From the IMG/VR virus record IMGVR_UViG_3300030339_000018: a DNA stretch of 64,000 nt, one strand, 5' to 3'. The notes beneath the pieces were generated by a model. The model was not told where the DNA came from, did no database searches, and worked only from the letters and a program-made list of their open reading frames with translations. This document shows, piece after piece, positions 13,705-50,725 of the stretch. This DNA is from a virus (Duplodnaviria > Heunggongvirae > Uroviricota > Caudoviricetes). Numbering within the stretch: the first letter of the stretch is position 1; each line of letters opens with the position of its first letter. The position numbers and the translations under genes were made by a program.

Positions 13705-14127
13705 TTAAAATTTTTCATTGTATTTATTATAAAAATTTGTTATAATTTTGCCACCTACTGGATTTTCACGTAAAGAATCACGTAAAATTGCTTCTTCTAA
13801 TTTAATAGGAAATTGTTTATATTCAATGTTAATTTCATATATTGAAGCAAATTTAATCCATTTATTTAAATATGTTTGATTTAAATTAGTAGCATCTAAT
13901 ACTACAGTATAACCTGCTGTTAGTCCTTCTATAACACAATTAGTTTCTATATAAGTAACTAAATTTTCTCGTTGTGGAACCCAATATTTACCTAGCATAT
14001 TTCGTATATCATCCCTATTAACTCTTACTCGAGTTAAAGGGGATTCTAGTACAAATTGTTTAGCCCACGTTGATTTTCCTGAAGCAGGAATACCTTGGGT
14101 TAATATTAATTTTTGAACTTCTTGCAT
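13705..14127 (-). CDS. P-loop polynucleotide kinase (AAA_33/Pnk kinase domain)
   Basis: Walker A GIPASGKSTWAKQF, about 140 aa, adjacent to an RNA ligase gene. Confidence 0.45.
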   Translation of the reverse strand: MQEVQKLILTQGIPASGKSTWAKQFVLESPLTRVRVNRDDIRNMLGKYWVPQRENLVTYIETNCVIEGLTAGYTVVLDATNLNQTYLNKWIKFASIYEINIEYKQFPIKLEEAILRDSLRENPVGGKIITNFYNKYNEKF

Positions 14128-14358
14128 ATTATAATTGTTCTACAACTGCAGTACAAATATCTTCTACTAAAGTAGTAAGAGTGTTACAATTATTTCCATC
14201 ATAATCACATATTTCTGACCCATTATTTTCAAATTTAATAAAATCATTTAATTCATCTAAAGAAGTTATTTTAATATTTATAGAAATTTCAATTGGATTG
14301 AATTTTATTTTTGAAACATTTATAGTCTTTTCCATTATTTTATTTTTTTATTTAGTAA

Positions 14359-15663
14359 TTAATTCTCAGATTCTATATCAATAATATTTTTATCTAGATT
14401 TTTACTCTCCATTTCATAAAAACCAAAAGATTTACATTTATATGCTTCGAATTCATTTTTTTCAATTCTTATTACAACTCCTTCTTCTACAACTTTATTC
14501 TTACAAATATAACAATCTTTTTCATTATACATTTCCTTTAAAACACTTAAGAAATCTTCCATGTTTTCTGGATTTTGTACTGATAGTTCAGCATATCTAA
14601 ACATAAAATCAAATACACTTCCATAATACAATTCTGGTACAGCCAAAAGACCTTTTTCTTTACAGAAATCTTGTACTTGGTGAGCACTGAATTCAAATAC
14701 TTTTCCAGATGGATTAGTATAAGTTATACGATAGATTCTGATTTCAAATTTACCCTCTTCTTGACCATAATCAAATGGACCTTGGATATATCCACCAGAA
14801 GGTAAAAATCCTACTATTTCATAATAGAAAGTCATCCCATCAGATAAGAACTCTTTAACCATTTCATGAGCTTTACCCCATATATCTGTATCATAGAAAT
14901 GAACAGCATTAGGATTTAAATCTGGATTCTTAATAACTTTACGTGAACTATAAATATAGTCATAATGTGTATCAACTACTTTTATAAATTTACTAGCAAG
15001 TTTTTCAAACCAATTTAAAGGTTTCTTACATAGAATTTTAGCAGAAATACCAGAAGTACCATGCATTTTATATGTAATAGAAATTAAATCATGAGGATGA
15101 ATCTTATGTAAATTTTTATATAATATAGAAGTATCATCATGAAATCTAAATTGATTTTCAATTAATTTTGATTCCCTTGCTAATTTTCCTTTACCTTTTT
15201 TACTATTAGGTGTACCTTGTATTTTATTAGTTTTAATAACATATTTAGAACAAATTGGAACTTTTTGATATTCATCAAATGATCCACCAATTGTCGGAAG
15301 TTCTGCAGCATATCCTTTAGTAATAAACTCTAAAGAATTCAAAGGCATATATAATCCTTCAGATTTATGTCCTCTAAATTTTACACACTTAATACGTCCA
15401 TTTTCTTCAAAATAACCTTTTTTAGTAGAATCTTTATTTAATTCTGCTTTTTTATATAAGTTATTAGCACTAAGATATTCTTTTGATAAGGCTGTTTCAA
15501 CTGGAAAATATAATCCCATTTCATTCATATGTACATCTAATCCAACAACTACTTGGTTTCCCATTATAATTGTGGCCTGTACTTTATCACATCCATCAAG
15601 AGGGACGAGTGCAATAATTTTTACTACAACTGCTGCATAGTTTTCATTTATAGGTTTATTCAT
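14359..15663 (-). CDS. ATP-dependent RNA ligase (Rnl2-like nucleotidyltransferase)
   Basis: Motif I YKMHGTSG (KxHGxxG as in Rnl2 KIHGTN); downstream FYYEIVGF and EGxF-like motifs. Confidence 0.5.
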   Translation of the reverse strand: MNKPINENYAAVVVKIIALVPLDGCDKVQATIIMGNQVVVGLDVHMNEMGLYFPVETALSKEYLSANNLYKKAELNKDSTKKGYFEENGRIKCVKFRGHKSEGLYMPLNSLEFITKGYAAELPTIGGSFDEYQKVPICSKYVIKTNKIQGTPNSKKGKGKLARESKLIENQFRFHDDTSILYKNLHKIHPHDLISITYKMHGTSGISAKILCKKPLNWFEKLASKFIKVVDTHYDYIYSSRKVIKNPDLNPNAVHFYDTDIWGKAHEMVKEFLSDGMTFYYEIVGFLPSGGYIQGPFDYGQEEGKFEIRIYRITYTNPSGKVFEFSAHQVQDFCKEKGLLAVPELYYGSVFDFMFRYAELSVQNPENMEDFLSVLKEMYNEKDCYICKNKVVEEGVVIRIEKNEFEAYKCKSFGFYEMESKNLDKNIIDIESEN

Positions 15664-16911
15664 ATTTATACTTCATTAGTTATAATTATTTCTAACCAAG
15701 TACAATCTTCTGTAGCAGCTAATTCATCTTCATCATATGGATCAGTTTCCCAAGCTAATGGAGAACAAAGTTTTTCTGTTATACCTCCACATACACATCC
15801 AGCTTTAAAGTAAACTGTATATATTGTATCAAATCCTTCTACTATATATTTATCTCCAATTTGGATTTCAATTCCATTTACATCAAATAAATTTGTTTTC
15901 ATTATAATATTGTTATTTTGTAATCAATGAAAGATACATAATCTACAATTTCTTCTTCAATATAATTAGTTGTATCTAACCAATCAAAGATTTGTTTTTG
16001 TGTAAAATTATCTAAATTAGTACTATAATCTTCTTCATCATCATGAACAAGATTATTAAGCCCTTCTAATAATTCATCATTGTCAATGTCTATTTCTAAT
16101 TCTACTTTAAGTCTCATTTAATTCCTTTTTTAATTCTTTTTCTTCTTTAATTCTTTTACGTTTTTCCTTCGCAGTTTCTACTTCTATATAAATAGCATTT
16201 TCTTTTAACCAATTTGAAGGAGCTGCAAGAAGATTAGTATATTTAAATAGTTGATAGTCTGTATAGGTATAAATAACAAAATCCACTAGATCTTTTATAA
16301 TCGTAGTGGATTTGTACATACTTGATTCTTCTAAATTCCAAGAATCCTGGGTTCTTTTAAAAATTTCTACTTCATAAATAAAAGCAGGGTACTCTTTTAA
16401 AAGTAAATCGTTATATTTATGATAGTGTTCCATTATTTTAAATAAATTAATAAAAAATCTTTTAATTGCGATGATAAAGATATTCCTATACATTGTGGCA
16501 TAACTGCACACCTATATAAAGATTTTGCATTTTCATTAAAATAACTACAATTAAAACATTCTTCTTTTAAATTAACACTTTCTAATATTAATTTAAATCT
16601 TCCATTTTCTAATGTCTTTAATAAATTTATATTATAATTTTCCATTCTATTCTTCTCTTGATATAGTTAAATTACCATAATACATACTTCCACTAATGTA
16701 TAAAATATCAGTAGGATTTTTAAAATAGATAAAAGTATTCCAATAATCTACTTGCCAACCATTAGTATCATAATCATCATTATCATAATATCCAATTGTA
16801 TTTAAAGCATCTTTTACTATTCCATATGATAAACAATCATAAGAAACTTTATCTTTTAAACCTCCCATAAGTTTTAAAATATCATTTGAAACTTCTTCAG
16901 TTAATTGTTCT

Positions 16912-18018
16912 TTAGTTTGCACTTTCTAATAGATAACGGTATTGAATATAACCTTTAAAATTATTACACCAACCATTAGCTGATTCTGGAAAATATTGAA
17001 CTCCATAACTAACACCTTCATCATCAATATATTTACCTTGACCTTTAGTAAAAGTATAATATTCTTCTTCTGTCATAGTGCGAGCACAATGTTCAAAAGG
17101 AGATAAATGCCTATTTGCTTTAAGCATATCATGCATATCAATATCTTTTTGATAATTGATTTCTTTATCGAATGTCATATAAGATAAACGTGCACAACGT
17201 GCAGTTGCAATTTTAATAATAGTATTCTCTGTTTGTTCATAAGGAGCAACATTAGACATTAATTCTATATTCATTTTATCACCAAAAGGAACATGCCATT
17301 CACCTGCTTTTAATAATTTAGGTGTAGATTCATTCATTACATCCCACATACTTTCAGCTAATGCTTGAATATGAATTTCAGCACCTGATGTATTAATATT
17401 TTGCCAATCATAATAAGAAAAATTTTCTAATTTTGTTAAATTTACTTTATTACTATGATTATTAATACAATCTTTTTTACTTTTAAAATAAAAACCTTCT
17501 CCACTTACTGGAGTATGAAATTTTGGACAACGAAGTTCAAAAAAATTATCATATTCAGTAGCTGTTAATAATACTGTATGCCACATAAATGGTTCTAGTA
17601 ATCTATTACAAAGTTGTTTAGTTATTCCTTCAGAAATAATTTCCCCTGGATCTTCAACTGATGTTTTCTTAATAATTGAGTCATGTAAATCATCTGCACA
17701 TTGAATTGCTTTTCTACTAGCATTAAGCCATTGACCGTGTCTAAATCTTATCTGCTTTTCGTCAGTTACATATTCTGTACCCTGCATACCAGAGTGATCT
17801 TTTTGCCATGCAATAGGAATAAATGGATCTGTTTCTACCATTGCTACCATCTTTTCAAATGGAATGGCTCGACTGCTTGCACTATTGCGCGTAAATAACC
17901 GATGTGTATTTAATTCAGGTAATATAAATCTTGGAAATGTTAACAAATAAGTTGTTATTCTATTACCAAATTCATTTATACTATCTGCTACTATTTCTGC
18001 ATTAATTTTTCTACTCAT
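16912..18018 (-). CDS. thyX: flavin-dependent thymidylate synthase ThyX
   Basis: HRLFTRNSASSRAIP resembles the ThyX RHRx7SxR motif; RCARLSYM region; size fits. Confidence 0.55.
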   Translation of the reverse strand: MSRKINAEIVADSINEFGNRITTYLLTFPRFILPELNTHRLFTRNSASSRAIPFEKMVAMVETDPFIPIAWQKDHSGMQGTEYVTDEKQIRFRHGQWLNASRKAIQCADDLHDSIIKKTSVEDPGEIISEGITKQLCNRLLEPFMWHTVLLTATEYDNFFELRCPKFHTPVSGEGFYFKSKKDCINNHSNKVNLTKLENFSYYDWQNINTSGAEIHIQALAESMWDVMNESTPKLLKAGEWHVPFGDKMNIELMSNVAPYEQTENTIIKIATARCARLSYMTFDKEINYQKDIDMHDMLKANRHLSPFEHCARTMTEEEYYTFTKGQGKYIDDEGVSYGVQYFPESANGWCNNFKGYIQYRYLLESAN

Positions 18019-26197: not shown

Positions 26198-26736
26198 TAC
26201 TTTTTATAGTTTACAATTGTAACATCGCAATTTTGTAATTCTTCTTGAATTATTTCTTTGATAATGTCCCAATTACCACCAGCCAAACCACAACCAATTT
26301 TAGGGAGACCAATATGCTTACCTGCAAAAATATAATTCATTTTACGCATACATAAAGTTATTGCTTCATAATCAACAGGAGCTCCACCAGAAGTCCCATA
26401 TCGACATTGTGTATAAGCATTAACAACAGAAAAAGTTTTTAAATCAGTCCATTGTTTGAATTGATTTCTTACTTTACTATGCGAAAATAATTTAGTTTCA
26501 CCTAAATCATGTTTAGATAAAGTAAATGTATCATAATCAATTTGACCAAGTTTATTTACATCACCTTTGTACTCCATATCTTCTAAAGGAAATGTATTAC
26601 ACTCAAAAGTATTTTTCATTTCCACAGCAATACCAGCACCCATTATACAATAACAATTGCAGCCATGAGCGATTACATCAAACTCACCTTGTAAGGCAAG
26701 TTTGATTAAATCACCATCTATTTCTTTATATGTCAT
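26197..26736 (-). CDS. macro domain protein (ADP-ribose binding/processing)
   Basis: DVIAHGCNCYCIMGAGIA glycine-rich macro-domain core. Confidence 0.45.
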   Translation of the reverse strand: MTYKEIDGDLIKLALQGEFDVIAHGCNCYCIMGAGIAVEMKNTFECNTFPLEDMEYKGDVNKLGQIDYDTFTLSKHDLGETKLFSHSKVRNQFKQWTDLKTFSVVNAYTQCRYGTSGGAPVDYEAITLCMRKMNYIFAGKHIGLPKIGCGLAGGNWDIIKEIIQEELQNCDVTIVNYKK

Positions 26737-28160
26737 TATTTTTTATTTAAAGCAATTTGTAAATATTCATCAGCAATTTTACGTATTTCAGTAAATTTTT
26801 GATCATTAAATAATTCTCCATTTTTATAAACTACTTGTAATTCATCTATATAAGGATTATTTTCACCAAATTGTTCAGTAGAACTTTGAATTGTCATAAA
26901 TCCATTACCAGCTTTATGTAATTTTAATAATCCTGCTTTACTTGCTTTAGTCATATCTGATTTTGGAGTTTTTTGTACATTAATAGATTTACCTTCAATT
27001 TCAACATGTGAAACCTTTACAGCCCACCTATCAGTATCTCTACATAAACCATCTGTATGTAATCCACCACCAGAACCAGTATTAAAATTTTCACAAGACC
27101 AACCTGTTTTAATATATTCTTCATAAATTTTAGGTATACTTTTTTCATTCATTCCATCACCTTGAAGTAAACCGACATTATGATTAATCACTTTGTAGTC
27201 TTTATGATTTAAATGATACCCAAAAAGATTACCTAATTGTTCAGAATATTTAATTACATTAGTTAAAGGATCATTACTATCAGGACGAGGTATAACTCTA
27301 CCAGGTCTATCAATAATTTTCTGTTTAACTTCTGGGTCACCGAGTACATTTTTAATAAAACCATCAGCATCATAACTATCCATTACAATACTAATTGGTA
27401 AATGTGGTTCAGCACGTTCTAACTGTGCTAACACATAATCAATTTCACCACGACCTTGACCCCATACAGTTGCTACTGAATGTTCAGTTGCCCACACAGA
27501 TTGACCAATATTATTATCAGTATAGTATTCTTCAATACCTTCCATTGCTGGAAGATTATCACTACCATTAGAGAATATTAACATAGCCATTCCACCTAAT
27601 ACTGCTCCCTCACGATAAACAGCACCACGTAATCCAAAATCATTCACTGCAAATGCTAAATCTGGCTTATCACAAGTCATATTAAAATAAGGAAGAATCC
27701 CTTTTTTAATATTGAATAAACGAGTTGCTACACCAGACGATTGCCAATTCCACATTAAATAATCTTCAAAATGACTAACCATACAAGCAAACCAAGGTTC
27801 AGTTGATACAATAGTGAAACAAACATTACCTGTTGGAAGAACTGTGCCTTCTTTAACACATTTAATTTCCAATGGGAAATAACCTAATTTTTTAACTTTT
27901 TCCCAAATTTCTTTAGGAAAGTATTTATCAGTACCAAAGACACGTTTGCATCTTGCAGCACCTCTTTCAATATTTTCCTGTGTTACTTTCTGCATGAAAT
28001 ATTCTTTAAGAATATATTGCATCCCAAAGAAACAAATTTCTGCATGTTGTCCACCCTTACGAGCTTCACCATATGAATAAAAATGATTAATTCCAGCTGG
28101 ACGTTGTAACCAATGAGTTATTTTATAAGCATCAGTATCTATTACACTATTTTTCCACAT
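26736..28160 (-). CDS. nicotinamide phosphoribosyltransferase (NAMPT/NadV-like)
   Basis: 474 aa, with the NAMPT size and composition typical of phage NadV; adjacent to an NMNAT-Nudix gene. Confidence 0.6.
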   Translation of the reverse strand: MWKNSVIDTDAYKITHWLQRPAGINHFYSYGEARKGGQHAEICFFGMQYILKEYFMQKVTQENIERGAARCKRVFGTDKYFPKEIWEKVKKLGYFPLEIKCVKEGTVLPTGNVCFTIVSTEPWFACMVSHFEDYLMWNWQSSGVATRLFNIKKGILPYFNMTCDKPDLAFAVNDFGLRGAVYREGAVLGGMAMLIFSNGSDNLPAMEGIEEYYTDNNIGQSVWATEHSVATVWGQGRGEIDYVLAQLERAEPHLPISIVMDSYDADGFIKNVLGDPEVKQKIIDRPGRVIPRPDSNDPLTNVIKYSEQLGNLFGYHLNHKDYKVINHNVGLLQGDGMNEKSIPKIYEEYIKTGWSCENFNTGSGGGLHTDGLCRDTDRWAVKVSHVEIEGKSINVQKTPKSDMTKASKAGLLKLHKAGNGFMTIQSSTEQFGENNPYIDELQVVYKNGELFNDQKFTEIRKIADEYLQIALNKK

Positions 28161-34796: not shown

Positions 34797-34848
34797 TTAT
34801 ATTTTTATTGTACCCGGGCCGAGAATCAAACTCGGATTTGAACGTTAG

Positions 34849-34921
34849 TATGCAAGCTGCGAATCGAACGCAGGACACTCGGTTTAGAAAACCGATGCTC
34901 TATCCCCTGAGCTACAAGCAC
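34849..34921 (-). tRNA. tRNA-Arg (anticodon TCT); acceptor stem carries U.U mismatches
   Basis: D arm GCTCAGGGGATAGAGC, anticodon arm TCGGT-TTTCTAA-ACCGA, T arm CTGCG-TTCGATT-CGCAG. Coordinates approximate. Confidence 0.55.
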
Positions 34922-34924
34922 ATA

Positions 34925-35512
34925 TTACTTATCTTTAGGATAGCGAAATTCATTTCTTGCACTATTCTTATTCTTTGATTTAAATGTATCTAATTGAGAA
35001 TCACAGTTAGGACAAATACACCTATAATTTTCTCTAATGTTATTTGCTGCATCTCCATCAATATGATCTAATATTAAAACTAAATGTTTATTATTCCATA
35101 CAGAATCCATCCCACAAATTGCACATTTATTACCTTGTTCTTTAAGAATAAAAGGTTTTACAGTAGTAATACTATAATTACCTCTTTGATATTCTTTTGG
35201 AGAAGTAAGAAAATAATCATATAATTCTTTAGATTGAAATTCTTTTTGACATGTAATTCCACAATATTTTCTTTGAGTAGTTGTATCTAAAGGTTTTCCA
35301 CAATTTACACAAACTAAATCAGCATATTTATTTACACCTTTTCTAAATGTTTCAGATTCATTTATCTTTCTACGTTGTGGTAATTCAATTCCAAATTTTT
35401 TAGCAACTTTTCTTATATTTGAACCAGTGCAACCATAAGTTAAACCAATTGTATTATAAGGGATATTTTGTACTAAAATTAACTCCTCTAATTCTTCTTT
35501 TATATATTCCAT
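34925..35512 (-). CDS. HNH endonuclease with Zn-ribbon repeats
   Basis: ...LVLILDHIDGDAANNIRENYRCICPNCD... HNH motif; TAcCTTTG promoter-like motif at about 35529-35545 upstream. Confidence 0.5.
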   Translation of the reverse strand: MEYIKEELEELILVQNIPYNTIGLTYGCTGSNIRKVAKKFGIELPQRRKINESETFRKGVNKYADLVCVNCGKPLDTTTQRKYCGITCQKEFQSKELYDYFLTSPKEYQRGNYSITTVKPFILKEQGNKCAICGMDSVWNNKHLVLILDHIDGDAANNIRENYRCICPNCDSQLDTFKSKNKNSARNEFRYPKDK

Positions 35513-35630
35513 TTTTATTAATTATTTATACTACAAAGGTACAAATAATTTTTGATATAAAATAGTTTGAATTAGTTAATTTATGTTAAAAGTGTACTGT
35601 TCTATTCAGTTGAACTATCCAGGCATTTAG

Positions 35631-35701
35631 CAAGTACACTAGGATTCGAGCCTAGATCAGGAGTTTTGGAGACTCTTATGCTACCATTGAATCATATACC
35701 T
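35631..35701 (-). tRNA. tRNA-Trp (anticodon CCA)
   Basis: Anticodon loop CTCCAAA; T arm CTAGG-CTCGAAT-CCTAG. D arm is imperfect. Approximate coordinates. Confidence 0.45.
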
Positions 35702-36138
35702 ATTTTAATTAATATCACATATTAAAGCTTTTCTTTTTTCACAAACTCCATAATAAAATTTAAGATTTTTTAATCCTCTCAAATAAACATTTTGTCTTTG
35801 TGTATCATCCCAATGAATTACAATTTTTGATTTTATAGTTTTATCTGTAATCCAATAATTTGGTTTATTTTTAATATATTCAATAAAATGTTTAATACAA
35901 TTTTTTGCCCATATTAAACTCTTTAATCCATCTTTTCCAGTTACTTTTAAAAATTGATAACCTTCTTTTCTTTTACCAATTTGTAATTTAACATAATACC
36001 AATCACATTTATTAGTACTATCACATTCTAATTCTAAAAAAAGAATTTGACCTGCTTCATTTTTAGTAATATAATAATAAATATCTTTATATTTATTATT
36101 AGGTTTTAATACAATTTCATACATATTATTAATTTTTG

Positions 36139-36219
36139 TACATATAGCAGGACTCGAACCTGCACGCCCCTACGAGCATCGGAGTCTAAACCCGATATGT
36201 CTACCATTCCATCATATAC
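36139..36219 (-). tRNA. tRNA-Leu (anticodon TAG), type II
   Basis: Anticodon loop TTTAGAC, long variable arm GCTCGTAGGGGCGTGC, T arm GCAGG-TTCGAGT-CCTGC. Confidence 0.6.
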
Positions 36220-36226
36220 GCATTTG

Positions 36227-36299
36227 AGCCAAAGGTGGGGCACGATCCCACAACCCTCTCATTACAAGTGAGATACTCTACCAATTGAGCTACTTCGGC
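36227..36299 (-). tRNA. tRNA-Thr (anticodon TGT)
   Basis: GCCGAAG acceptor, D arm GCTCAATTGGTAGAGT, anticodon arm TCTCA-CTTGTAA-TGAGA. Confidence 0.65.
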
Positions 36300-36435
36300 A
36301 ATTTTAGAGGGTCACTATTAACCTCTTTGATGTTGTTTCTTCTTATTCGTACACGTGTTTGAAATTCAGACTGGACTACATTTCTTTACCAGATAGTTTT
36401 AAATATATAAGACTAATGAAAACCTATATATCTTG

Positions 36436-36522
36436 CGGAGAGTACCGGATTCGAACCGATGTGCCCTGTTACAGGCCACTAGTTTAGCAAACTAGCACGA
36501 TAAACCACTCTGCCAACTCTCC
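36436..36522 (-). tRNA. tRNA-Ser (anticodon GCT), type II
   Basis: GGAGAGT/ACTCTCC acceptor, anticodon arm CTAGT-TTGCTAA-ACTAG, long variable arm, T arm ATCGG-TTCGAAT-CCGGT. Confidence 0.65.
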
Positions 36523-37073
36523 AATACATTACTTATGTTGCATATGATAGTGTTTAACTCTCAAATCAACTTTACTTTGTTTTAATTTACTATTAGCAAA
36601 TAAGTTATAAACAGGTTCTTCTAATATGTGATGAATAACATATATAGGAAAATTTAATATATCTATACCAATACAATATTTAACTATCATATTTTTCTTG
36701 CAAATTTATGAATCAACCATCCAAAAACTAAAACAGCCCCTATTATAATTCCAATAATAATTCCAATTCCTATTTTAAACATTATTTTTTAATTTACGTT
36801 TTTGACCATGATATTTAATTTCAATCATAAATATTCATAAGTGACCTTCTTTTTTTTTCCAATCATCTCCATATGATAAACCGCATTAATAGGTCTATCT
36901 TCAATTATACAAACTCCATTCCCAATATAATTATACGATCTTGCATACATTTTATCATTGGTGGAATCTCTAATACATATTTCTTTACCTTTTAAATACT
37001 GCCAATTAATTATAACATCATTACATAATTGATGAAAACTTCCTTGAACTATTTGCATATTATTTAATTTTTG

Positions 37074-37161
37074 GGTGAAAGGTGGGATTCGAACCCACAT
37101 TAGTCATTACAACATTCCTGATTCACAATCAGGTCGGCATCCCTTACCGGCTACAATCACC
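37074..37161 (-). tRNA. tRNA-His-like (anticodon GTG), non-canonical: two U.U pairs in the acceptor stem and about 18 nt between the anticodon and T arms
   Basis: Anticodon arm CCTGA-TTGTGAA-TCAGG, T arm GTGGG-TTCGAAT-CCCAC, possible G-1. Confidence 0.35.
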
Positions 37162-37171
37162 ATATAAAAAG

Positions 37172-37254
37172 TGGGACATGATGGAGTCGAACCACCCGAG
37201 TCCGAAGACAACTGCTTTACAGGCAGTCCCGCTACCCCTACGGTATAACATCCC
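37172..37254 (-). tRNA. tRNA-Tyr (anticodon GTA), type II
   Basis: Anticodon arm ACTGC-CTGTAAA-GCAGT, long variable arm TTGTCTTCGGACTCGG, T arm GGTGG-TTCGACT-CCATC. Confidence 0.6.
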
Positions 37255-37554
37255 ATATAATAGTCTTTCCTATCAGTCATACTTCCTTTAAATTCTGTTT
37301 AGATAATTCATCCTAACGGCAAAGCAGTATTGTATAAACCAGTATTCTTTAAAATTATGCTTGTACCGGAGTATTAGCTTCTTTAATTTTTTCAGCAATT
37401 TTAGTATTAACTGCTTTTAAATTTGCTTGTGCTTGTTCAACTGTAACTATTTGATCATAAGCTAATGCTTTTAAATCATTTAATGACATTGTATCAAGAT
37501 TTACTTGTTGTTCATTCATTGTTTTAATTTTGACTATTATTTATCTCTTTTTAT

Positions 37555-38031
37555 TTATCTTACATTTATAATATTACTAAGTGTACCTTTACTACTAATA
37601 TTATATTTTAACATTAAATCTTTATAAGAATATCCAGAGTCACGATCAGCTTTAATTTCTATAACTAATTCATCTGAATATTTTTTATGTGCATTAGAAG
37701 CTTTATTAATTCTTATTTCTTTAGATTGATCCATCATATTATCACTATGTGTACCTATTTTAAGATTATCCCAAGAATTATTTAAAGAATTACTATCCAT
37801 ATGTCGAATCATTATATTTTCTTTATAAATTTCTTCTCCAAATTTTTGATATGCTTGTAATCTATGTACTCTAACTTTAATAGTTTTACCTAGTAATTTT
37901 GTACTAATAGTTTTATAACCATTATTAATTGTGCCTAATAAAATTTTTCCAGATTTACTAATGCATGTACCATCTTTTTCAACTTTGTACCCTAAATCAA
38001 AAAGTACTTTTTCATAATATGTATATTCCAT
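37555..38031 (-). CDS. HNH_3-family homing endonuclease
   Basis: ...VHRLQAYQKFGEEI...IRHMDSNSLNNSWDNLKIGTHSDNMMD... It is preceded directly by a tRNA-like gene. Confidence 0.5.
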   Translation of the reverse strand: MEYTYYEKVLFDLGYKVEKDGTCISKSGKILLGTINNGYKTISTKLLGKTIKVRVHRLQAYQKFGEEIYKENIMIRHMDSNSLNNSWDNLKIGTHSDNMMDQSKEIRINKASNAHKKYSDELVIEIKADRDSGYSYKDLMLKYNISSKGTLSNIINVR

Positions 38032-38044
38032 ATAATAATTTAAG

Positions 38045-38127
38045 CGGAAGAAGTAGGTCCCGACCCCAAGATGTTTCCGTCCGTACAGATTTCAAGTCTG
38101 TCTTGCTACCTAAGCAATTCATCTTCC
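38045..38127 (-). tRNA. tRNA-Ser-like (anticodon TGA if minus strand), type II-like with aberrant T arm; possibly a pseudo-tRNA
   Basis: Acceptor GGAAGAT/TTCTTCC, D arm TTGC-TTAGGTA-GCAA, perfectly palindromic anticodon stem ACAGA-CTTGAAA-TCTGT. No canonical TTCRA T loop. Confidence 0.3.
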
Positions 38128-38206
38128 ATTAACGAGATTGCTTTGAACCTCTAAAGTCAACCTATATTGATACATATAGGATTTTAGTCTTTCTGGAGAA
38201 AGAATA

Positions 38207-38992
38207 TTATTTTTTAACTATATTTAAAATATCATAAAATTTACACCATTTTCTTATAGCATTATCTGTAACACCATAAAATTTACCAACAGCAACAAAT
38301 GAAATTAATTCTTTAAATTTAGATATAAGTTCTTCAGAAGTAGGTCTTTTACTACCATTAATTTTGTGTGAACATTCTTGAGAACAACATTTATTTTTTC
38401 TAGATTTACCAATTAATTCTTTATTACAGTATAAGCAATATTTAGGAATAATTTCTTTAATTTCTTTAACTTTAATTTCTTTAATTATTTCAATTGGAAT
38501 AATATTTTCATTCACAATAAGACTTTCTTCTTTTTTACCTTTACCTCTATAATTATCAGTAAAAGCGTGACAATTAGGGCATAACATTTGTAAATTTTCA
38601 ATACAATGATTAGTATTTACTCCATCAATATGATGTAATTCTAAAGGAATAGGTTCTTCCATTCATTCAGTATTATTACATTTTTCACATCTATATTCCT
38701 TAATACCTTCTTTTAATAATCTTTTATTTAATTTTGATGTAGAAAAAGTAGAATAAGATACTAAAATTTCTTCAATTGGTTGGGCAAATTTAATTTGTGT
38801 ATATCTTAATCCAACATTCCATACTTGCCCAGTAAAATGATCTGTATTTAAATCATATTCTTTAATTTTAGCATGAATTGTTTTGTAATTTCCTCCAACT
38901 GCTTTTAATCCTATTTGTCGGCATACTCCAGCAATAGATAAATTTTCTTTTACTGCAATTCTAATTTGTTCTTCTGTGTACTTAGTTCTCAT
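38207..38992 (-). CDS. HNH homing endonuclease with N-terminal HTH and C-terminal DNA-binding module; single gene containing an in-frame TGA at 38663-38665
   Basis: ORF-track pieces 38663..38992 and 38207..38662 are in one frame. TGA lies between YRCEKCNNTE and MEEPIPLELHHIDGVNTNHCIENLQMLCPNCH, so the CxxC...HH...N...CxxCH HNH motif spans the TGA. TAcCTTTG promoter-like motif at about 39009-39025. Confidence 0.6.
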
Positions 38993-39074
38993 TTTTATAA
39001 TTATTTAATACACAAAGGTACTAAATAATTTTGAGTCTACCAAATCGAATTATGTTAAAATATATTAAAAATAG

Positions 39075-39155
39075 TACCCGTAGCAGGAGTCCAACCTGCA
39101 CGCTTTTAGGCGCTCCCGCTTAAAAGGAGTGTGTCTAGCATTTCACCATACGGGT
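39075..39155 (-). tRNA. tRNA-Leu (anticodon TAA), type II
   Basis: ACCCGTA/TACGGGT acceptor, anticodon arm CTCCT-TTTAAGC-GGGAG, variable arm CGCCTAAAAGCGT, T arm GCAGG-TTGGACT-CCTGC. Confidence 0.55.
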
Positions 39156-39209
39156 ATTAATTGATTATTTTATATATAATCATAGTTTTAAGAACCATTC
39201 GTTCTTTGT

Positions 39210-39280
39210 TGTCCCATCTAGATTCGAACTAGAGCTATTTGAGTCAAAGTCAAATGTGTTAGACCACTACACTATGGAAC
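39210..39280 (-). tRNA. tRNA-Gln (anticodon TTG)
   Basis: Anticodon arm TTTGA-CTTTGAC-TCAAA; T arm CTAGTTCGAATCTAG. Confidence 0.6.
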
Positions 39281-39548
39281 AATATTATTTTTCTATGCAG
39301 TAAGTGCTTAGACTTGCCTATCATACCTATCAGAATCATTTAATCTGGCACTAATCTTGGTTAGAAAAATTTAATTTAAAGGTACTGAATATCTTAACCC
39401 ACCAGTACAGTCTCAATTCAATTGTATCGCTGTATACGAATACCTTCATGAGGATGGAAGAATTGCTCACACGTTACCTTTATATTGTAAGAATATCATC
39501 ATTAGAAATACAATAAATTGTATTTCATCACACTACTATATTCTTGAG

Positions 39549-39619
39549 CGGGAAGTGTAGGAATCGAACCTACGCCTATTGATTAACAGTCAACTGCTCG
39601 ACCTTCGAGCTAACAACCC
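39549..39619 (-). tRNA. tRNA-Asn (anticodon GTT); acceptor stem with two U.U pairs
   Basis: D arm GCTCGAAGGTCGAGC, anticodon arm GTTGA-CTGTTAA-TCAAT, T arm GTAGG-TTCGATT-CCTAC. Confidence 0.55.
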
Positions 39620-39742
39620 AGTTTATAATTTTTGCTTACCATCGCTTCACTGTTAAAATTACAAAAATACATCAGTTACCATTATCGTTGTTTCTGCATC
39701 AACGCTTCATCCGAAGAGGTCTATAGTCGGTTACTATAACTG

Positions 39743-39816
39743 AGCGATAAGTGGGTCTCCAACCCACAACCTCCGACTTGGAAGGACGGCACTCTAAGCA
39801 ATTGAGCTATTATCGC
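39743..39816 (-). tRNA. tRNA-Gly (anticodon TCC)
   Basis: GCGATAA/TTATCGC acceptor, anticodon arm CCGTC-CTTCCAA-GTCGG (one U.U), T arm GTGGG-TTGGAGA-CCCAC. Confidence 0.5.
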
Positions 39817-40248
39817 ATTTTAATTTAATACTATATCAGGGGTTTTCTATTGTACATTTAGCGAGCTCCCTTATACACATCATGACTAAATTCATGTTAT
39901 TTCCATTTTACAGAAACTATAATATTAAATTATTTTATTAGTTGTAATCTATCAAAGATTAAACCATTATTTTCTATTGCTATGGCTGTAATTGTGCCAC
40001 ATAAATCTGGTTCATGAAATTCAGAAAATGTATATCCATTGTTTGCTAACTTTGGAATCCATTCATCTAAATTTGCTGATAAAAAGAATAAATAGTTGTT
40101 ATTCCATTCTTGTGTTTCTTTATTATCAAGGAGGAATTGTGCTACTGCATGTGCTCCTTGGACACATCCATATACGCTATTTAATCTATTATTAATTAAT
40201 ACGTATAGTTTTCTTTCTTCTACTTGTTCCATTATTATTATTATTTTG

Positions 40249-40320
40249 TGCACCGCCCCAGACTTGAACTGGGAACCTATCGGTTAAAAGCCGAGAGCTC
40301 TACATTGGAGCTAGCGGTGC
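40249..40320 (-). tRNA. tRNA-Lys (anticodon TTT)
   Basis: GCACCGC/GCGGTGC acceptor, anticodon loop CTTTTAA, T arm CCCAG-TTCAAGT-CTGGG. Confidence 0.6.
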
Positions 40321-40481
40321 GAGTTTGTTGGAATAGGCAAATCACCAACTATGATACATGCATTGAAAAGAATCACTTTTACTAATTGTATCTTTCACAT
40401 AAAAGTAGATAATGTGATTAGCATTAAACGTACTTTTTCTATACTAAGTGATGTAGCAGAGCAGTTTATTAAACTGTTGTG

Positions 40482-40553
40482 TGAGCCTAATAGGAGTCGA
40501 ACCTATATCCCAGGATTCGTAATCCTGTGTTCTATCCATTGAACTATAAGCTC
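40482..40553 (-). tRNA. tRNA-Arg (anticodon ACG)
   Basis: Anticodon arm CAGGA-TTACGAA-TCCTG, T arm ATAGG-TTCGACT-CCTAT. Confidence 0.6.
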
Positions 40554-40563
40554 TCATTAATTG

Positions 40564-40636
40564 TGACCTCTGCTGGATTTGAACCAGCGACACCTAGATC
40601 TTCAATCTAGTGCTCTACCAACTGAGCTAAGAGGTC
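40564..40636 (-). tRNA. tRNA-Phe (anticodon GAA)
   Basis: GACCTCT/AGAGGTC acceptor, D arm GCTCAGTTGGTAGAGC, anticodon arm CTAGA-TTGAAGA-TCTAG, T arm GCTGG-TTCAAAT-CCAGC. Confidence 0.7.
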
Positions 40637-40683
40637 AAGCAAGATTTTTACTTCTAGGAAGAAATACCTTGAAAAAGAACCGT

Positions 40684-40753
40684 TGCGATATCAAGAATTG
40701 AACTTGAATCAAATGGATATGAGCCAAACATTCTACCATTGAACTATATCACA
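40684..40753 (-). tRNA. tRNA-Met/Ile2-type (anticodon CAT), elongator-like
   Basis: Acceptor TGTGATA/TATCGCA, anticodon loop CTCATAT, anticodon stem with two U.U mismatches, T arm TCAAG-TTCAATT-CTTGA. Confidence 0.5.
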
Positions 40754-40754
40754 G

Positions 40755-40828
40755 TGGGGAAAATAGGACTTGAACCTATGACCTCCCGGGTATCAGCCGG
40801 ACGCTCTAACCAACTGAGCTATATCCCC
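40755..40828 (-). tRNA. tRNA-Ile (anticodon GAT)
   Basis: D arm GCTCAGTTGGTTAGAGC, anticodon arm TCCGG-CTGATAC-CCGGG, T arm ATAGG-TTCAAGT-CCTAT. Confidence 0.65.
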
Positions 40829-41164
40829 ATTATTTTTCTAAATATTGGAATATAAAAATCTATGGATTGTATATCTTTTCTATGAATAGATACTTTATAA
40901 TTATCATATCTTTTAGATGTATTAGGTTGTCCAATTGGATCTTTCCATATTCTAAAATCTTTCATTACAAAATTTATGTATTCTCCTTCAAATACAACAT
41001 CTATTGGATAATGATAATACTCATTCATACCACTAGGTTTTAATTTATGTAGTATAATCCAACAAATTCTTTTATTACTTAATAATCTTGGTAAACTTTT
41101 AAAAACTTTTCTTGTCATTTGGATGTATTTTATTAATTAATACTGTCCGCCATTTTAATAATTT

Positions 41165-41239
41165 GAGCTCATACTCCGATTTGAACGGAGGAAATATTGG
41201 TTTTGCAGACCAACGCGTTAGACCACTTCGCCATATGAG
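41165..41239 (-). tRNA. tRNA-Cys (anticodon GCA)
   Basis: GCTCATA/TATGAGC acceptor, anticodon arm TTGGT-CTGCAAA-ACCAA, T arm TCCG-TTCAAAT-CGGA. Confidence 0.65.
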
Positions 41240-41402
41240 CATTTAAAAATTCAGTTCTTGCATAAGAAATAATAAACGTTAATTAGTTTTTTGTACGGGA
41301 GTTACACCTATTTATTATATTTACACAAACTAACTTATGCCTAAGTAAATAGCCCACTATATACGCTTCCACTATTTGTTTGCTTCAATCTGAATTTTAT
41401 TG

Positions 41403-41535
41403 TTGCGAGCGCCGGATTCGAACCGTGTCTCGGGGTTATAGCTTTATTCTATTCTAAAATAAATTTTAGTTTGAACATTTCACAGACTTTTAAACCTGTA
41501 TGAGCCCAGTGAGCTACCATTGCTCCACCCTCGCA
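41403..41535 (-). tRNA. initiator-like tRNA (anticodon CAT, GGG/CCC anticodon stem) interrupted by an intervening sequence of about 62 nt in the anticodon loop
   Basis: 5' half GCGAGGG-TG-GAGCAATGGTAGCTC-A-CTGGG-CTCATA..., 3' half ...CCCCG-AGAC-ACGGTTCGAATCCGG-CGCTCGCA. Between them lies about 62 nt of AU-rich sequence with the hairpin CTAAAATTTATTTTAG. Confidence 0.4.
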
Positions 41536-41549
41536 TCTGTTATATTTTG

Positions 41550-41622
41550 TATAAGCGGTGAGACTCGAACTCACGACCACATGCTCCCAAAGCATGCATT
41601 CTACCAACTGAAATACGCCTAT
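41550..41622 (-). tRNA. tRNA-Pro (anticodon TGG)
   Basis: Anticodon arm CATGC-TTTGGGA-GCATG, T arm GTGAG-TTCGAGT-CTCAC. Confidence 0.6.
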
Positions 41623-41729
41623 ATTTAATTAGAAATCCAATTTTTCAGGATCTTTGAAAGATAAAAACTCATTTGCGAATAATAATCCGTTCTTTAAATA
41701 AATATCTTGTTTCATATCTAAATCATTTG

Positions 41730-41802
41730 CAGTACTGATGGGAATCAAACCCACTAAATCTCGATAGACAGTCGAGTGCACCAATCGTTATGCGCCAGTA
41801 CT
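41730..41802 (-). tRNA. tRNA-Asp (anticodon GTC)
   Basis: AGTACTG/CAGTACT acceptor, anticodon arm CTCGA-CTGTCTA-TCGAG, T arm GTGGG-TTTGATT-CCCAT. Confidence 0.6.
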
Positions 41803-41808
41803 ATTTTT

Positions 41809-41882
41809 GTAATCGGTATCGGATTCAAACCGATGTTACTTCATAGAAGGTGAAGTGTGCTAGGTCACTGCACTAACCGATC
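41809..41882 (-). tRNA. tRNA-Glu (anticodon TTC)
   Basis: D arm GTGCAGTGACCTAGCAC, anticodon arm CTTCA-CCTTCTA-TGAAG, T arm ATCGG-TTTGAAT-CCGAT. Confidence 0.6.
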
Positions 41883-41885
41883 ATT

Positions 41886-42806
41886 TTATTTTAATAACTT
41901 AATATCCTTTTGTTTAGATGGTAATTCATAAAATTTACACCATTTTCTTATTGTATTGTCACTTACTCCAAAATCCTTTCCTAATTTTAAAAAAGAATTC
42001 ATCTTAATTAATTCTAATAAATCTTCTTTAGAGGGTCTTTCAACTTTTCTTTGATTTAAAGCTCTTAGTTTTTCTTTTTCAGAATAACCATTTTCGTCAC
42101 GAAATACTTTTTCTTTAATCTTAGGCATTGTAACAATACCTATCGTTTGATAAATAATTTCTTTTGTTTCAAGAGAATGTAAAACTATTTGAATAACTTC
42201 ATCAATATTAGTTTTAATCTGATTTTCAGCAATTCTAATAATATTCCAACCATTGTTTTTTAATAACAAATCCTTTTCGCCATCTTTAATTTTTCTTTCC
42301 TCTAACAAATGTTGAGAACCATCTATCTCAATAGCTAACTTTTCATTAATGAACGCAAAATCAATAAAATATGGAAATACACTATATTCTCTTGCAATTA
42401 AGTATTTTTTATCTAATTCAAATCTTTCTAAGGCTTCTTTAAATAAATTTTCAGGATAAGATATAGTGGAAGTTCTCCAAGCTGTATTCTCTGGATGTTC
42501 TTTCATATATTTTAGTCTAGCAATTCTTATTTTTTCTTTAGACTCATCAGAATGATGTAATGTATACTTTTTAGAAGCAATTTTTCGTGCTTCAGAAAAA
42601 GAACGAGTAAGTCCTTTTAAAATTCTTTGAACTATACAAGTAGATAAATCATATTCTTTTTTAATATCATTTATAGAATAATTTAATTCTATATATTTAT
42701 TTTTAATATCTAACAAATTTAATGCTGTTAATTTACATGCATTTTGATGGGCAATTTGTCCGCCTTTATTAGAAAATTCTAGTCCACATTTTTCACAAAT
42801 ATTCAT
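41886..42806 (-). CDS. homing-endonuclease-like protein: N-terminal Zn finger, central restriction-endonuclease-like (DUF559/Vsr-like) domain, C-terminal HTH module
   Basis: CEKCGLEFSNKGGQIAHQNAC; FAFINEKLAIEIDGSQH; C-terminal KLGKDFGVSDNTIRKWCKFYELP, the same module found in the HNH at 38207..38992. TAtCTTTG promoter-like motif at about 42814-42828. Confidence 0.4.
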   Translation of the reverse strand: MNICEKCGLEFSNKGGQIAHQNACKLTALNLLDIKNKYIELNYSINDIKKEYDLSTCIVQRILKGLTRSFSEARKIASKKYTLHHSDESKEKIRIARLKYMKEHPENTAWRTSTISYPENLFKEALERFELDKKYLIAREYSVFPYFIDFAFINEKLAIEIDGSQHLLEERKIKDGEKDLLLKNNGWNIIRIAENQIKTNIDEVIQIVLHSLETKEIIYQTIGIVTMPKIKEKVFRDENGYSEKEKLRALNQRKVERPSKEDLLELIKMNSFLKLGKDFGVSDNTIRKWCKFYELPSKQKDIKLLK

Positions 42807-43441: not shown

Positions 43442-43981
43442 TTAGAATACATTATTTTTTAAATACTGATTATAAACATAAGCAGCATGTAATTCACAGA
43501 TAAAATATCCTAAAAATATTTTTCTTTTTAATACTGAATCCCATATATTAGATAGCCATTTCTTCCTAGTTTCTACCCAACATACACCTGTATATTGAGA
43601 TGAAGTATTAGTTCTAACATACCCATCACTTACATTATATCTATTAGAAACAATTTCCAAATTATCTAAATAATTATTTAATTTATTCCCATCAATATGA
43701 TTAATAACAGTAGTTCTTTTATTTACTATATAATCAAGAAAAGACATAGCAACTAAAATATGAATACAATAACTTTTTCTAATTTTATTTTTTGTAAGAT
43801 TTACAGATAAATAATTAGTTCCACATGGTTTTAATATTTTATCTTTTTTAGCTTTATTATTACCTAATGATAATATATTACCAAAATTACTACATTTATA
43901 TAATCCTTCAAATGTAGGTATATCTTTCCAAATTTCTTGCATATTTTCCTTTGTTTTATTTAATATGCAAAGATACAACAT
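43442..43981 (-). CDS. HNH endonuclease fused to an AP2-like DNA-binding domain; true start probably an internal ATG near 43942
   Basis: ...INHIDGNKLNNYLDNLEIVSNRYN... followed by YTGVCWVETRKKW (AP2 YxGVxW). TAtCTTTG promoter-like motif at about 43973-43988. Confidence 0.5.
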   Translation of the reverse strand: MLYLCILNKTKENMQEIWKDIPTFEGLYKCSNFGNILSLGNNKAKKDKILKPCGTNYLSVNLTKNKIRKSYCIHILVAMSFLDYIVNKRTTVINHIDGNKLNNYLDNLEIVSNRYNVSDGYVRTNTSSQYTGVCWVETRKKWLSNIWDSVLKRKIFLGYFICELHAAYVYNQYLKNNVF

Positions 43982-44030: not shown

Positions 44031-44762
44031 TTACTGTTCATTTGTTGGTTTAAGCCAAAGTTTGGTATGTTTAAAAATATACAACTTTAAATCCCTATAT
44101 TTACACAACATTTCTAAAGTTTTAAATGTATCAAACTTAAAACATTTGTATAACTCTTCACGAATACGTTCTTCAGACACAACTCCCATTTTGTATTCAT
44201 AATCATAGTTCTCAATAACTTCTTGCATATTTGCTGGAATAGCTAAATTTTTAGTTAATGCAAAACGAATAGCTCTTAAAATTCTAAGGGGATCATCATT
44301 AAATGTTACATTACATGGAAGAGGTGTTCTAAGAATTCTAGCTCTTAAATCAGCTTCTCCATTAAATGGATCAATAATATTTCCATCTTCATCTTTAGCC
44401 ATAGCATTAACTGTAAAATCCCTACGTTCAAGATCATCATATAATGAACCAGGTACAATAATAGGTGTACGAGTTCCAGGTATATAACCAATTTCCTTAC
44501 GTGCCATTACAAAATCAGCAACACCTTTATATTTATGTCCTACTGGAAATTTAGCACGAATTGTATAACAATCTTTAGTTACTAAAAATATTTCAAACAT
44601 ATCTCTTCTTAAGATTTGTTCCAATAAAATAAACATATCACTAGCTTTACTATGTGAAGCAAGTAATATATCATTTGGAACAGCAACATAATCGACATCT
44701 TTATTTACTAATCCAAGAAATTCATCTCGAATCTTACCACCTACTTCATAGAATTTAAACAT
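44031..44762 (-). CDS. minimal class II nucleotidyltransferase (CCA-adding enzyme / poly(A) polymerase head domain)
   Basis: VGGKIRDEFLGLVNKDVDYVAV, i.e. the GGxxRD...DxD head-domain signature; 243 aa. Confidence 0.55.
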   Translation of the reverse strand: MFKFYEVGGKIRDEFLGLVNKDVDYVAVPNDILLASHSKASDMFILLEQILRRDMFEIFLVTKDCYTIRAKFPVGHKYKGVADFVMARKEIGYIPGTRTPIIVPGSLYDDLERRDFTVNAMAKDEDGNIIDPFNGEADLRARILRTPLPCNVTFNDDPLRILRAIRFALTKNLAIPANMQEVIENYDYEYKMGVVSEERIREELYKCFKFDTFKTLEMLCKYRDLKLYIFKHTKLWLKPTNEQ

Positions 44763-50622: not shown

Positions 50623-50648
50623 AATAATTTATTTTATGTTATTAATTG

Positions 50649-50725
50649 TGGTATTAGAAAGATTCGAACCTTCAACCTCGTACCTTGCGGGTTTAACGTG
50701 CTCTAACCAATTGAGCTATAATACC
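50649..50725 (-). tRNA. tRNA-like gene with canonical acceptor, D and T arms but a non-canonical 25-nt anticodon/variable region; identity undetermined
   Basis: GGTATTA-TA-GCTCAATTGGTTAGAGC-A-[CGTTAAACCCGCAAGGTACGAGGTT]-GAAGG-TTCGAAT-CTTTC-TAATACC-A. No 5-bp stem plus 7-nt loop can be drawn in the bracketed part. Confidence 0.4.

Follow-up and report, generated by a model that had tools for sequence, protein, structure and literature searches.

An initiator-like phage tRNA gene split by a 62-nt insert beside the anticodon, with inserts at the same site in other phage lineages

Introduction

To our knowledge, the introns of bacterial tRNA genes are thought to be self-splicing (group I or II) only, and protein-dependent tRNA splicing is regarded as archaeal or eukaryotic. 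Here, we describe an initiator-like tRNA(CAU) gene whose anticodon loop is interrupted by 62 nt, located in a 64,000-nt stretch of DNA (the window hereafter) from a virus of the class Caudoviricetes (IMG/VR record IMGVR_UViG_3300030339_000018). The gene had been proposed from the letters of the window alone in a first-pass annotation, and was analyzed here with covariance models, tRNA gene finders, and searches of public sequence collections.

The closest described elements are the "enigmatic introns" of 79–141 nt in the tRNA genes for Tyr, Phe, Thr, and Gly of Lak megaphages (Devoto et al., Nat Microbiol 2019, PMC6784885). According to that paper, these introns have no Rfam match, vary in presence or absence among near-identical genomes, and have boundaries one nucleotide off the prediction of the eukaryotic model, and a 596-kb phage carries shorter tRNA inserts of 23–52 nt. 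In the sequences of its Table S6, the corrected Lak boundaries restore canonical 7-nt anticodon loops with the insert between positions 36 and 37, and each intron combines a 5′ hairpin with a linker resembling AUUAAAC and a nested tRNA-like element made up of an acceptor stem and a T arm. No later paper explaining the mechanism of short phage tRNA introns was found in our literature search.

Other known systems share parts of this arrangement. Archaeal and eukaryotic tRNA introns, which also lie next to the anticodon, carry a bulge-helix-bulge (BHB) motif and follow a cut-and-seal logic (EndA or Sen for cutting; RtcB or Trl1 for sealing) in which the tRNA body holds the halves together; we know of no splicing endonuclease in bacteria. 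Bacterial group I introns, found in tRNA-fMet, tRNA-Ile (CAU), and tRNA-Leu (UAA), interrupt bacterial-type tRNAs after position U36, as is the case here. In T4 phage, tRNA cut by PrrC is healed by Pnkp and sealed by Rnl1, a pathway in which one host-inflicted nick is mended and no intervening RNA is removed.

An Interrupted Initiator-like tRNA Gene

The split gene lies at positions 41535–41403 on the minus strand, with its insert directly 3′ of the anticodon. The location given in the first-pass annotation holds, although the strand had been left unstated. The gene comprises:

41500..41535, minus strand: 5′ exon, starting at U 41535 or G 41534 and ending at U36 (41500), as placed by cmscan and by ARAGORN on the spliced sequence.
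41438..41499, minus strand: intervening sequence, 62 nt in the 36/37 register (ACAGG...GCUAU), 21% G+C.
41403..41437, minus strand: 3′ exon, from A37 A38 through A73 (41403), placed by the same two programs.

The Rfam tRNA model (RF00005) matched positions 41534–41404 end to end with 28.6 bits, insertion penalty included, which is under the gathering score of 29, and the gene was therefore not listed in the whole-window Rfam scan. In a local Rfam scan, the match had an E-value of 4e-4 and aligned as two halves around one 64-nt insertion after CUCAU. ARAGORN missed the gene with default settings; with the intron option (-i), which had been suggested as a check, it did find the locus, c[41402,41535], but parsed it implausibly as a tRNA-Lys (CUU) with a 39-nt intron and a long variable arm. 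Once the 62 nt were removed, default ARAGORN called a 72-nt tRNA-Met(CAU) with the loop CUCAUAA and the pairs G29–31:C39–41, and the spliced sequence aligned across the junction (positions 1 or 6 to 72, 74–80% identity) to annotated, uninterrupted tRNA-Met of phages and Salmonella. Four independently made assemblies, two of them from JGI and the others from ENA and Logan, show 100% identity across the region, so the split gene is not an assembly artefact. The samples that contain the phage include JGI 3300029983 and 3300030294, SRR9021057, and ERZ27249832. The window locus is thus a real and reproducible split tRNA gene, as the first-pass annotation had claimed.

The 5′ exon supplies the 5′ strand of the acceptor, U8 G9, the D arm GAGC-AAUGGUA-GCUC, the anticodon stem strand CUGGG, and the loop nucleotides CUCAU. 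The 3′ exon continues with AA, the stem strand CCCCG, the variable nucleotides AGA(C), the T arm (A)CGG-UUCGAAU-CCG(G), an acceptor strand ending in GCUCGCA, and A73, followed by CA. The predicted exon–exon junction (marked by a slash) reads GGGCUCAU/AACCCCG, also written as ...CUGGGCUCAU/AACCCCGAG... The initiator-like anatomy noted at first sight, with three G-C pairs, the CAU anticodon, and a UUCGAAU T loop, was recovered in full. The gene carries the three consecutive G-C pairs of bacterial initiators (G29–31:C39–41, CUGGG/CCCCG) and A11:U24 in the D stem (GAGC/GCUC), the latter being a bacterial-initiator identity feature.

Boundaries and Classification of the Insert

The trinucleotide AUA is repeated at both junctions, so the boundaries of the insert are ambiguous by 1–3 nt; the 35/36, 36/37, and 37/38 registers all yield an identical product. 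As had been proposed, the insert is AU-rich and contains a hairpin (hairpin 2 below), and minimum free energy folds place a second one (hairpin 1) at the 5′ junction:

41482..41499, minus strand: insert hairpin 1, ACAGG-UUUAAAAG-UCUGU.
41454..41469, minus strand: insert hairpin 2, CUAAAAU-UU-AUUUUAG (CTAAAATTTATTTTAG), extendable in these folds by UGUUC/GAAUA to ~11 bp with an internal loop.

No Rfam intron or ribozyme matched in the local scan at E ≤ 10, be it a group I or II intron or a small self-cleaving ribozyme. A U36 at the end of the 5′ exon, as seen with group I introns, is present; by contrast, the last insert nucleotide is U or A whichever register is chosen, rather than the terminal G, and an insert of 62 nt has no room for the ribozyme core (P3–P9, at least ~200 nt), in agreement with the earlier statement that it is too short for a group I intron. 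The suggestion of a permuted or nested element found no support, with the two halves standing in normal order and the local scan revealing no tRNA-like or other Rfam element (and no GGTTCGA-type T arm) inside the insert. No second copy, as would mark a repeat or mobile element, was found within the window, and no terminator within the insert. One sigma-70-like promoter match in the insert (TTCAAA-18-TAGAAT) was at chance level and was rejected.

For a BHB, which consists of two 3-nt bulges around a 4-bp helix, we compared loop nucleotides 32–35 with the four insert nucleotides just upstream of the 3-nt bulge. The central helix had 2, 2, and 0 of its 4 pairs in the three possible registers, compared with 3–4 for archaeal matches in the same test. 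In addition, the window encodes a phage tmRNA:

53981-54400, minus strand: tmRNA, Rfam 75.5 bits, E 1.6e-27, not reported by ARAGORN.

Together, the missing BHB and the phage tmRNA are evidence against an archaeal-type intron. The first-pass remark that this is "not a bacterial-type arrangement" is, therefore, not to be taken as meaning archaeal. In sum, the insert fits neither a group I intron, nor a known ribozyme, nor a BHB intron.

The resemblance to the Lak introns is closer. According to PMC6784885, these also occur in a large, uncultured, AT-rich bacterial phage, sit directly after the anticodon, match nothing in Rfam, have no BHB, and are AU-rich with a hairpin at the very 5′ end; the Lak tRNA-Tyr intron and the window insert both begin with (U)ACAGG and end with AGCUA. 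The Lak introns differ in being longer (79–141 nt), in carrying a nested tRNA-like element where the window insert has a 7-bp hairpin, and in residing in tRNA-Tyr, -Phe, -Thr, and -Gly instead of an initiator tRNA. No significant homology between the window insert and the Lak introns was detected, with local alignment scores falling within the distribution of dinucleotide shuffles. Being short, neither BHB nor group I, immediately 3′ of the anticodon, and in a large phage, the window insert nonetheless shares the general features of the Lak type, and the locus joins a rare, already published group of short inserts in phage tRNAs.

Inserts at the Same Site in Other Phages

Public collections were searched with a pattern comprising GGGCTCAT, a gap, ACCC, a second gap, and the T loop, along with variants of it. 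Most metagenomic matches were archaeal BHB introns (A1-U72; CUCA pairing with UGAG 3 nt before A38) or chance upstream matches beside intact genes. A distinct subset was bacterial-type, lay on phage-like contigs, lacked a BHB, and had the insert exactly between CAU and AA. In this way, four further phage lineages, all unrelated, proved to have short inserts in their initiator-type tRNAs:

L087: 39-nt insert with two hairpins; adjoins a large terminase gene; CCA encoded; A1×A72.
L114: 35-nt insert; tmRNA directly beside the split tRNA; adjacent phage polymerase exonuclease; C1×A72.
L167: 37-nt insert; with tRNA-Gly, tRNA-Glu, and a homing endonuclease gene.
L300: 36-nt insert; on a 53-kb viral contig.
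L212/L213: 23-nt insert; on viral contigs of 198 and 225 kb.

These loci resemble the window in tRNA type, in the site, in having short inserts (23–39 nt) that end in AU or GU, in lacking a BHB, and in their phage setting. No proteins were found in common between them and the window, and their inserts have no sequence similarity to that of the window. The AU or GU at the end of all five inserts can pair with A35-U36. The cloverleafs of the other interrupted initiator tRNAs are clean, unlike that of the window copy.

The inserts of L114, L167, and L300 are homologous to one another (CGGUCUUUAA...AAGUAAUACCG), while their exons have diverged. In an alignment of these three sequences (few for a covariation analysis), covering the cloverleaf and the insert hairpin, 97% of cells pair and nine pairs show two-sided changes, of which the exons contribute seven and the insert hairpin two; these values were reached by no more than 2 of 500 shuffles, and slid controls were ~40% paired. 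Pair 1:72 is mismatched in all three, a hallmark of bacterial initiators. Given compensatory changes in both exons and insert, such interrupted genes would evolve as working tRNAs, and the pattern in the three sequences suggests purifying selection on a tRNA carrying its insert.

In folds of L114, L167, L300, and L212, the hairpin is closed at its base by pairing of A35 and U36 with the terminal AU or GU of the insert, and the closing helix (A35-U36 included) has 6 bp in the first three. With L300 read as CAU, the excised RNA of these four would be a hairpin with a 2-nt 3′ overhang, despite a 1-nt shift relative to the tRNA. ARAGORN gives the anticodon of L300 as CAC; its 1:72 mismatch favours CAU, on which the overhang geometry depends. 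As a general rule, this RNase III-like geometry was rejected, since L087 fails it, and in the four loci that have it, such a cut may be considered a lead only.

Bacterial and archaeal genomes were also scanned (one genome per species; 185,579 species), and all 73 matches were chance occurrences within coding sequence (for example, one conserved Rhodococcus coding sequence), with a pattern narrow enough (non-A first insert base, AGCTC D stem, 20–50-nt gap) that the window's own insert would not match it. The deposited phage genomes of INPHARED contained no interrupted counterpart of the window, L212, or L114 pre-tRNAs, and half-matches in Vibrio phages were discarded as ordinary, uninterrupted tRNA-Met. 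The first-pass suggestion of looking for the same insertion in related phage genomes led only to near-identical copies of the window phage.

Several further observations came out of these searches. Initiator-type tRNAs with canonical BHB introns (central helix 4/4) were seen on L085 (7465-7601 and 7288-7440), L088 (9414-9525), L148, and L169, with U1-A72 in place of A1-U72 in the last three; these contigs (IMG/VR "viral" and metagenome) are probably from archaeal viruses or archaeal DNA. The insert motif of L114, L167, and L300, CGGTCTTTAA-N11-GTAATACCG, is also present in seven IMG/VR contigs (L290, L292, L299, L303, L304 (2660-2689, minus strand), L305, and L307), where it is intergenic, outside tRNA genes, upstream of a ribosome-binding site, and without an Rfam match. 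Truncated tRNA-fMet-like elements, which have the 5′ strand of the acceptor and GGGCUCAUAACCC together with an altered D region, stand 20–40 nt upstream of an intact tRNA-fMet in the metagenome contigs L116, L117, L118, L119, L202, L209, and L210. Most "introns" called by ARAGORN -i over other viral loci were long variable arms or tandem genes. L048 has a candidate interrupted tRNA-Phe(GAA) with a predicted 21-nt insert within a tRNA array (152-247, plus strand), and L006 a candidate 134-nt tRNA-like match (15862-15995, minus strand; 29.5 bits) whose anticodon and variable regions both carry insertions.

Possible Function of the Window Copy and Alternative Explanations

We infer, with a probability of about 0.4, that the window copy is spliced and functional. 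The universally conserved core of the tRNA is intact (U8, G18G19, U33, CAU, and the T loop UUCGAAU), as are A11:U24 and the three G-C pairs, and the exons have ~61% G+C compared with 27% for the genome. This reading is also favoured by the alignment to tRNA-Met across the junction, by the place of the gene in the array (14 nt after tRNA-Pro, with the N73-CA trailer of its neighbours), and by the RNA ligase, polynucleotide kinase, and CCA-type enzyme that the phage encodes. The first-pass proposal of a mini-intron also gains from the same-site inserts in other phage initiator tRNAs, the covariation in one family, and the precedent in Lak phages (PMC6784885), all of which bear on it indirectly.

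Several observations weigh against splicing and function of this copy. They are best seen against the tRNA array in which the gene resides:

34848..41882, minus strand: tRNA array, with 19 ARAGORN genes, an Rfam-only tRNA-Asp, and the split gene (ARAGORN and Rfam).

In ARAGORN's parse, the spliced tRNA has four mismatched pairs (G7×G66, U28×C42, C49×C65, and A50×G64) and a 3-nt connector with an extra nucleotide before U8. Two of the mismatches are in the T stem, where none of the 20 other array tRNAs has any. Pair 1:72 is formed (U1-A72 in the ARAGORN register, G1-C72 in that of cmscan), unlike in bacterial initiators and in L114, L167, and L300. The basal helix of the insert amounts to 3 A-U pairs, as opposed to 6 bp in the L114/L167/L300 family, and the 2-nt-overhang geometry is a weak fit. 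No relatives of the window phage were found at a distance useful for a covariation analysis of the split locus. On the side of the enzymes, no endonuclease candidate for removal of the insert emerged from the window scans, and no phosphatase domain was found in the ORFs neighbouring the phage's polynucleotide kinase gene. The stem defects may be fewer than ARAGORN implies: a parse of our own construction, with 8 acceptor and 4 T-stem layers, would have three non-standard pairs instead of four. It would place a G×G within the acceptor and an A×G with three G-C pairs in the T stem, for 12 stacked layers; U8 G9 would then be normal, the variable loop would have 4 nt, and A73 would be followed by CA.

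These defects lend weight to the strongest alternative, also raised in the first-pass annotation, namely a decaying pseudogene, in which the 62-bp insertion inactivated an initiator tRNA gene whose stems are now gathering mismatches and whose RNA is neither spliced nor functional; the insertion may have been a DNA-level event that duplicated AT(A) at its target. We regard this as only somewhat less probable than splicing. The gene has the worst stem integrity of the array, its covariance-model score is under the Rfam threshold, its insert has the composition of the genome background with a weak closing pairing, and a target-site duplication could account for the 1–3-nt direct repeat that flanks the insert. 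Genes for homing-type endonucleases are packed in and around the array (41886-42806, 43442-43981, and 37555-38031), and phages do not require an initiator tRNA of their own. Against decay are the intact tertiary nucleotides and initiator-specific pairs and the exons still at 61% G+C, and the mismatches are mostly G/C transversions rather than AT-biased changes. Although the split gene is the most mismatched of the array, some of the other array tRNAs also have 2–4 mismatched pairs, and the same arrangement is kept under tRNA-like constraint in other phages.

A functional but unspliced tRNA-like RNA, with a body bound by tRNA-binding proteins and an enlarged anticodon loop that blocks decoding, appears improbable. 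Such an RNA may be a decoy that draws off host nucleases attacking the anticodon loop of initiator tRNA, or a regulator or sponge for MetRS, formyltransferase, or IF2. The conserved tRNA body and T loop would suit this role, as would the fact that, within these searches, inserts in initiator tRNAs always lie at the anticodon, and host anticodon nucleases are reported to shape phage tRNAs (PMC10264068). Against it, all five lineages retain without change the CAU anticodon, the loop nucleotides beside it, and the three G-C pairs, which is expected if the loop is rebuilt and unnecessary for a decoy; this preservation is partly an ascertainment effect, since the search pattern demanded GGGCTCAT and ACCC.

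Very improbable is a relic of a group I intron of the tRNA-fMet or tRNA-Ile(CAU) type, inserted after U36 and since deprived of its catalytic core. The 5′ exon does end in U36, as group I introns require, the junction between CAU and A is what we take to be the site of the Azoarcus tRNA-Ile intron, and a P1 helix could form between UCAU and a GUGA within the insert. Nonetheless, no Intron_gpI match was seen even at E ≤ 10, the insert is less than one third the length of the smallest group I introns and has no terminal G, and the possible P1 pairing is absent from L087, L167, and L212. Finally, an archaeal- or eukaryotic-type intron, cut at a BHB by a splicing endonuclease in a virus that infects an archaeon or encodes an EndA-like enzyme, is scarcely credible: the position is compatible with the canonical 37/38 site and many metagenomic pattern matches are such introns, yet at most two of the four central-helix pairs form, the tmRNA points to a bacterial host, and A11:U24 is that of a bacterial initiator.

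Candidate Enzymes and a Possible Splicing Route

If the window copy is spliced, removal of the insert and sealing of the exons would call for enzymes of the phage or its host. Two genes singled out in the first-pass annotation (13705-15663) are candidates:

14359..15663, minus strand: RNA ligase, 434 aa (phrog_968, E 3e-59; PF21189; weak TIGR02306), the putative sealing enzyme.
13705..14127, minus strand: polynucleotide 5′-kinase, 140 aa (phrog_505, E 3.5e-34; PF13671; P-loop GIPASGKST), kinase domain only, the putative end-healing enzyme.

Both genes are real, but the label "Rnl2-like" attached to the ligase was not established: its N-terminal OB fold is like that of the DRB0094 family, and its sequence suggests that KMHGTS at residues ~199–204 is ligase motif I. 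The ligase had no match among PDB sequences, and its single-sequence AF2 model (pLDDT 34) was unusable. Like T4, the window phage has genes for a polynucleotide kinase and for an RNA ligase, with which a broken anticodon loop could be sealed; unlike in T4, its kinase is without the phosphatase half, and its ligase was not Rnl1-like in any test run. No EndA was found among ~20 window ORFs scanned with Pfam and 10 scanned with PHROGs (partly the same ORFs), in a genome of 168 kb (contig k141_1775190 of ENA ERZ27249832). A kinase and a ligase joining 3′-OH and 5′-P ends, in the absence of a 3′ phosphatase, would fit cuts that leave a 3′-OH better than a route through 2′,3′-cyclic phosphate. RNase III, P, E, or PIN-type enzymes leave 3′-OH ends.

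A possible route can be outlined as follows. The tRNA array would be transcribed as a precursor. Within it, the pre-tRNA would fold into an ordinary tRNA body from whose anticodon loop the AU-rich insert sticks out as two hairpins, its ends joined through A35-U, U36-A, and A-U pairs. Cutting at both junctions would fall to a protein endonuclease, which may be a phage enzyme or a host RNase, specific for double strands, of the RNase III type, and the tRNA body would keep the halves together. The resulting nick in the anticodon loop would be sealed by the phage's own ATP-dependent RNA ligase, with the kinase-only enzyme supplying the 5′ phosphate if the cut leaves a 5′-OH. The acting enzymes and the end chemistry are putative. 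More broadly, large phages might use a protein-only form of tRNA splicing that has no cellular counterpart in bacteria, in which a hairpin insert is excised by a double-strand-specific or phage endonuclease and the loop resealed by a phage ligase, a generalization that we consider unlikely at present. Were it true, the insert would make maturation of the initiator tRNA dependent on phage enzymes, which could serve timing, or shield the anticodon loop from host anticodon nucleases until the repair machinery is present.

tRNA Array and Genomic Surroundings

The window has ~27% G+C, and all its long ORFs are on the minus strand. The split gene is the 18th of ~21 tRNA genes in the array, located 14 nt downstream of a tRNA-Pro and 163 nt upstream of a tRNA-Cys. 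Most array tRNAs are trailed by N73-CA rather than CCA, and the split gene likewise has A73-CA. Further RNA genes and a tRNA-processing gene are as follows:

44031..44762, minus strand: tRNA nucleotidyltransferase of the CCA-adding type, 243 aa (PF01743; phrog_24229, E 5e-60; NCBIfam CCA enzymes), upstream of the array.
41730-41802, minus strand: tRNA-Asp, found by Rfam only (43 bits); by eye, loop CUGUCUA, anticodon GUC, and a 3-bp D stem.
37073-37160, minus strand: tRNA-His, 88 nt, 35 bits, with a 15–16-nt, class-II-like variable arm, unusual for His.
50648-50725, minus strand: isolated tRNA-like gene, 78 nt, outside the array; Cys(GCA) by ARAGORN with 4 mismatched pairs and an irregular-looking anticodon arm; Rfam 52.8 bits.

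Long variable arms are also seen at the unrelated phage locus L006, in tRNAs for His, Pro, Trp, Gln, and Val (14246-14331, 14536-14621, 14763-14847, 15486-15568, and 16856-16940; 39–62 bits). The endonuclease genes that flank and interrupt the array, all on the minus strand, encode a DUF559/Vsr-like protein with HNH-family PHROG matches, a NUMOD4-HNH protein, and an HNH_3 ORF. The window also encodes phage-type replication and nucleotide-metabolism genes, with a DNA polymerase just ~33% identical to any deposited phage, and a nicotinamide/nicotinate phosphoribosyltransferase (NAMPT_N and NAPRTase domains) of NAD salvage (26736-28160, minus strand).

The phage stands apart from others in the collections searched. 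Exact-protein look-up returned near-identical copies alone (99.99%), a 525-aa marker protein matched nothing at more than 44% identity over 40% of its length, a second protein anchor had no matches, and an exact 27-mer from the 5′ half had no match in IMG/VR. The minimal, 243-aa nucleotidyltransferase is 65–70% identical to proteins on 321 confirmed IMG/VR stretches. The 80 of these loci that were fetched had just that gene and one other in common with the window and were without the split tRNA; most had no tRNA genes within ~10 kb.

Implications

Short phage tRNA inserts that are neither self-splicing nor of the archaeal/eukaryotic type have been noted once before, in Lak megaphages, to which the window adds an initiator-type case. 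This case led to four more phage lineages with inserts in the same phosphodiester region, one with covariation. Beyond the single locus, the broader picture is probably of more value: a site that recurs in initiator tRNAs of several phage lineages, one covarying family, and a narrow cellular scan that returned chance matches only. If these inserts are spliced, infected bacteria would host an undescribed RNA cut-and-seal pathway, and phage RNA ligases would gain a constitutive substrate beyond their role in repair. Because standard bacterial tRNA finders miss interrupted genes, the tRNA repertoires of phages, initiators included, are under-counted.

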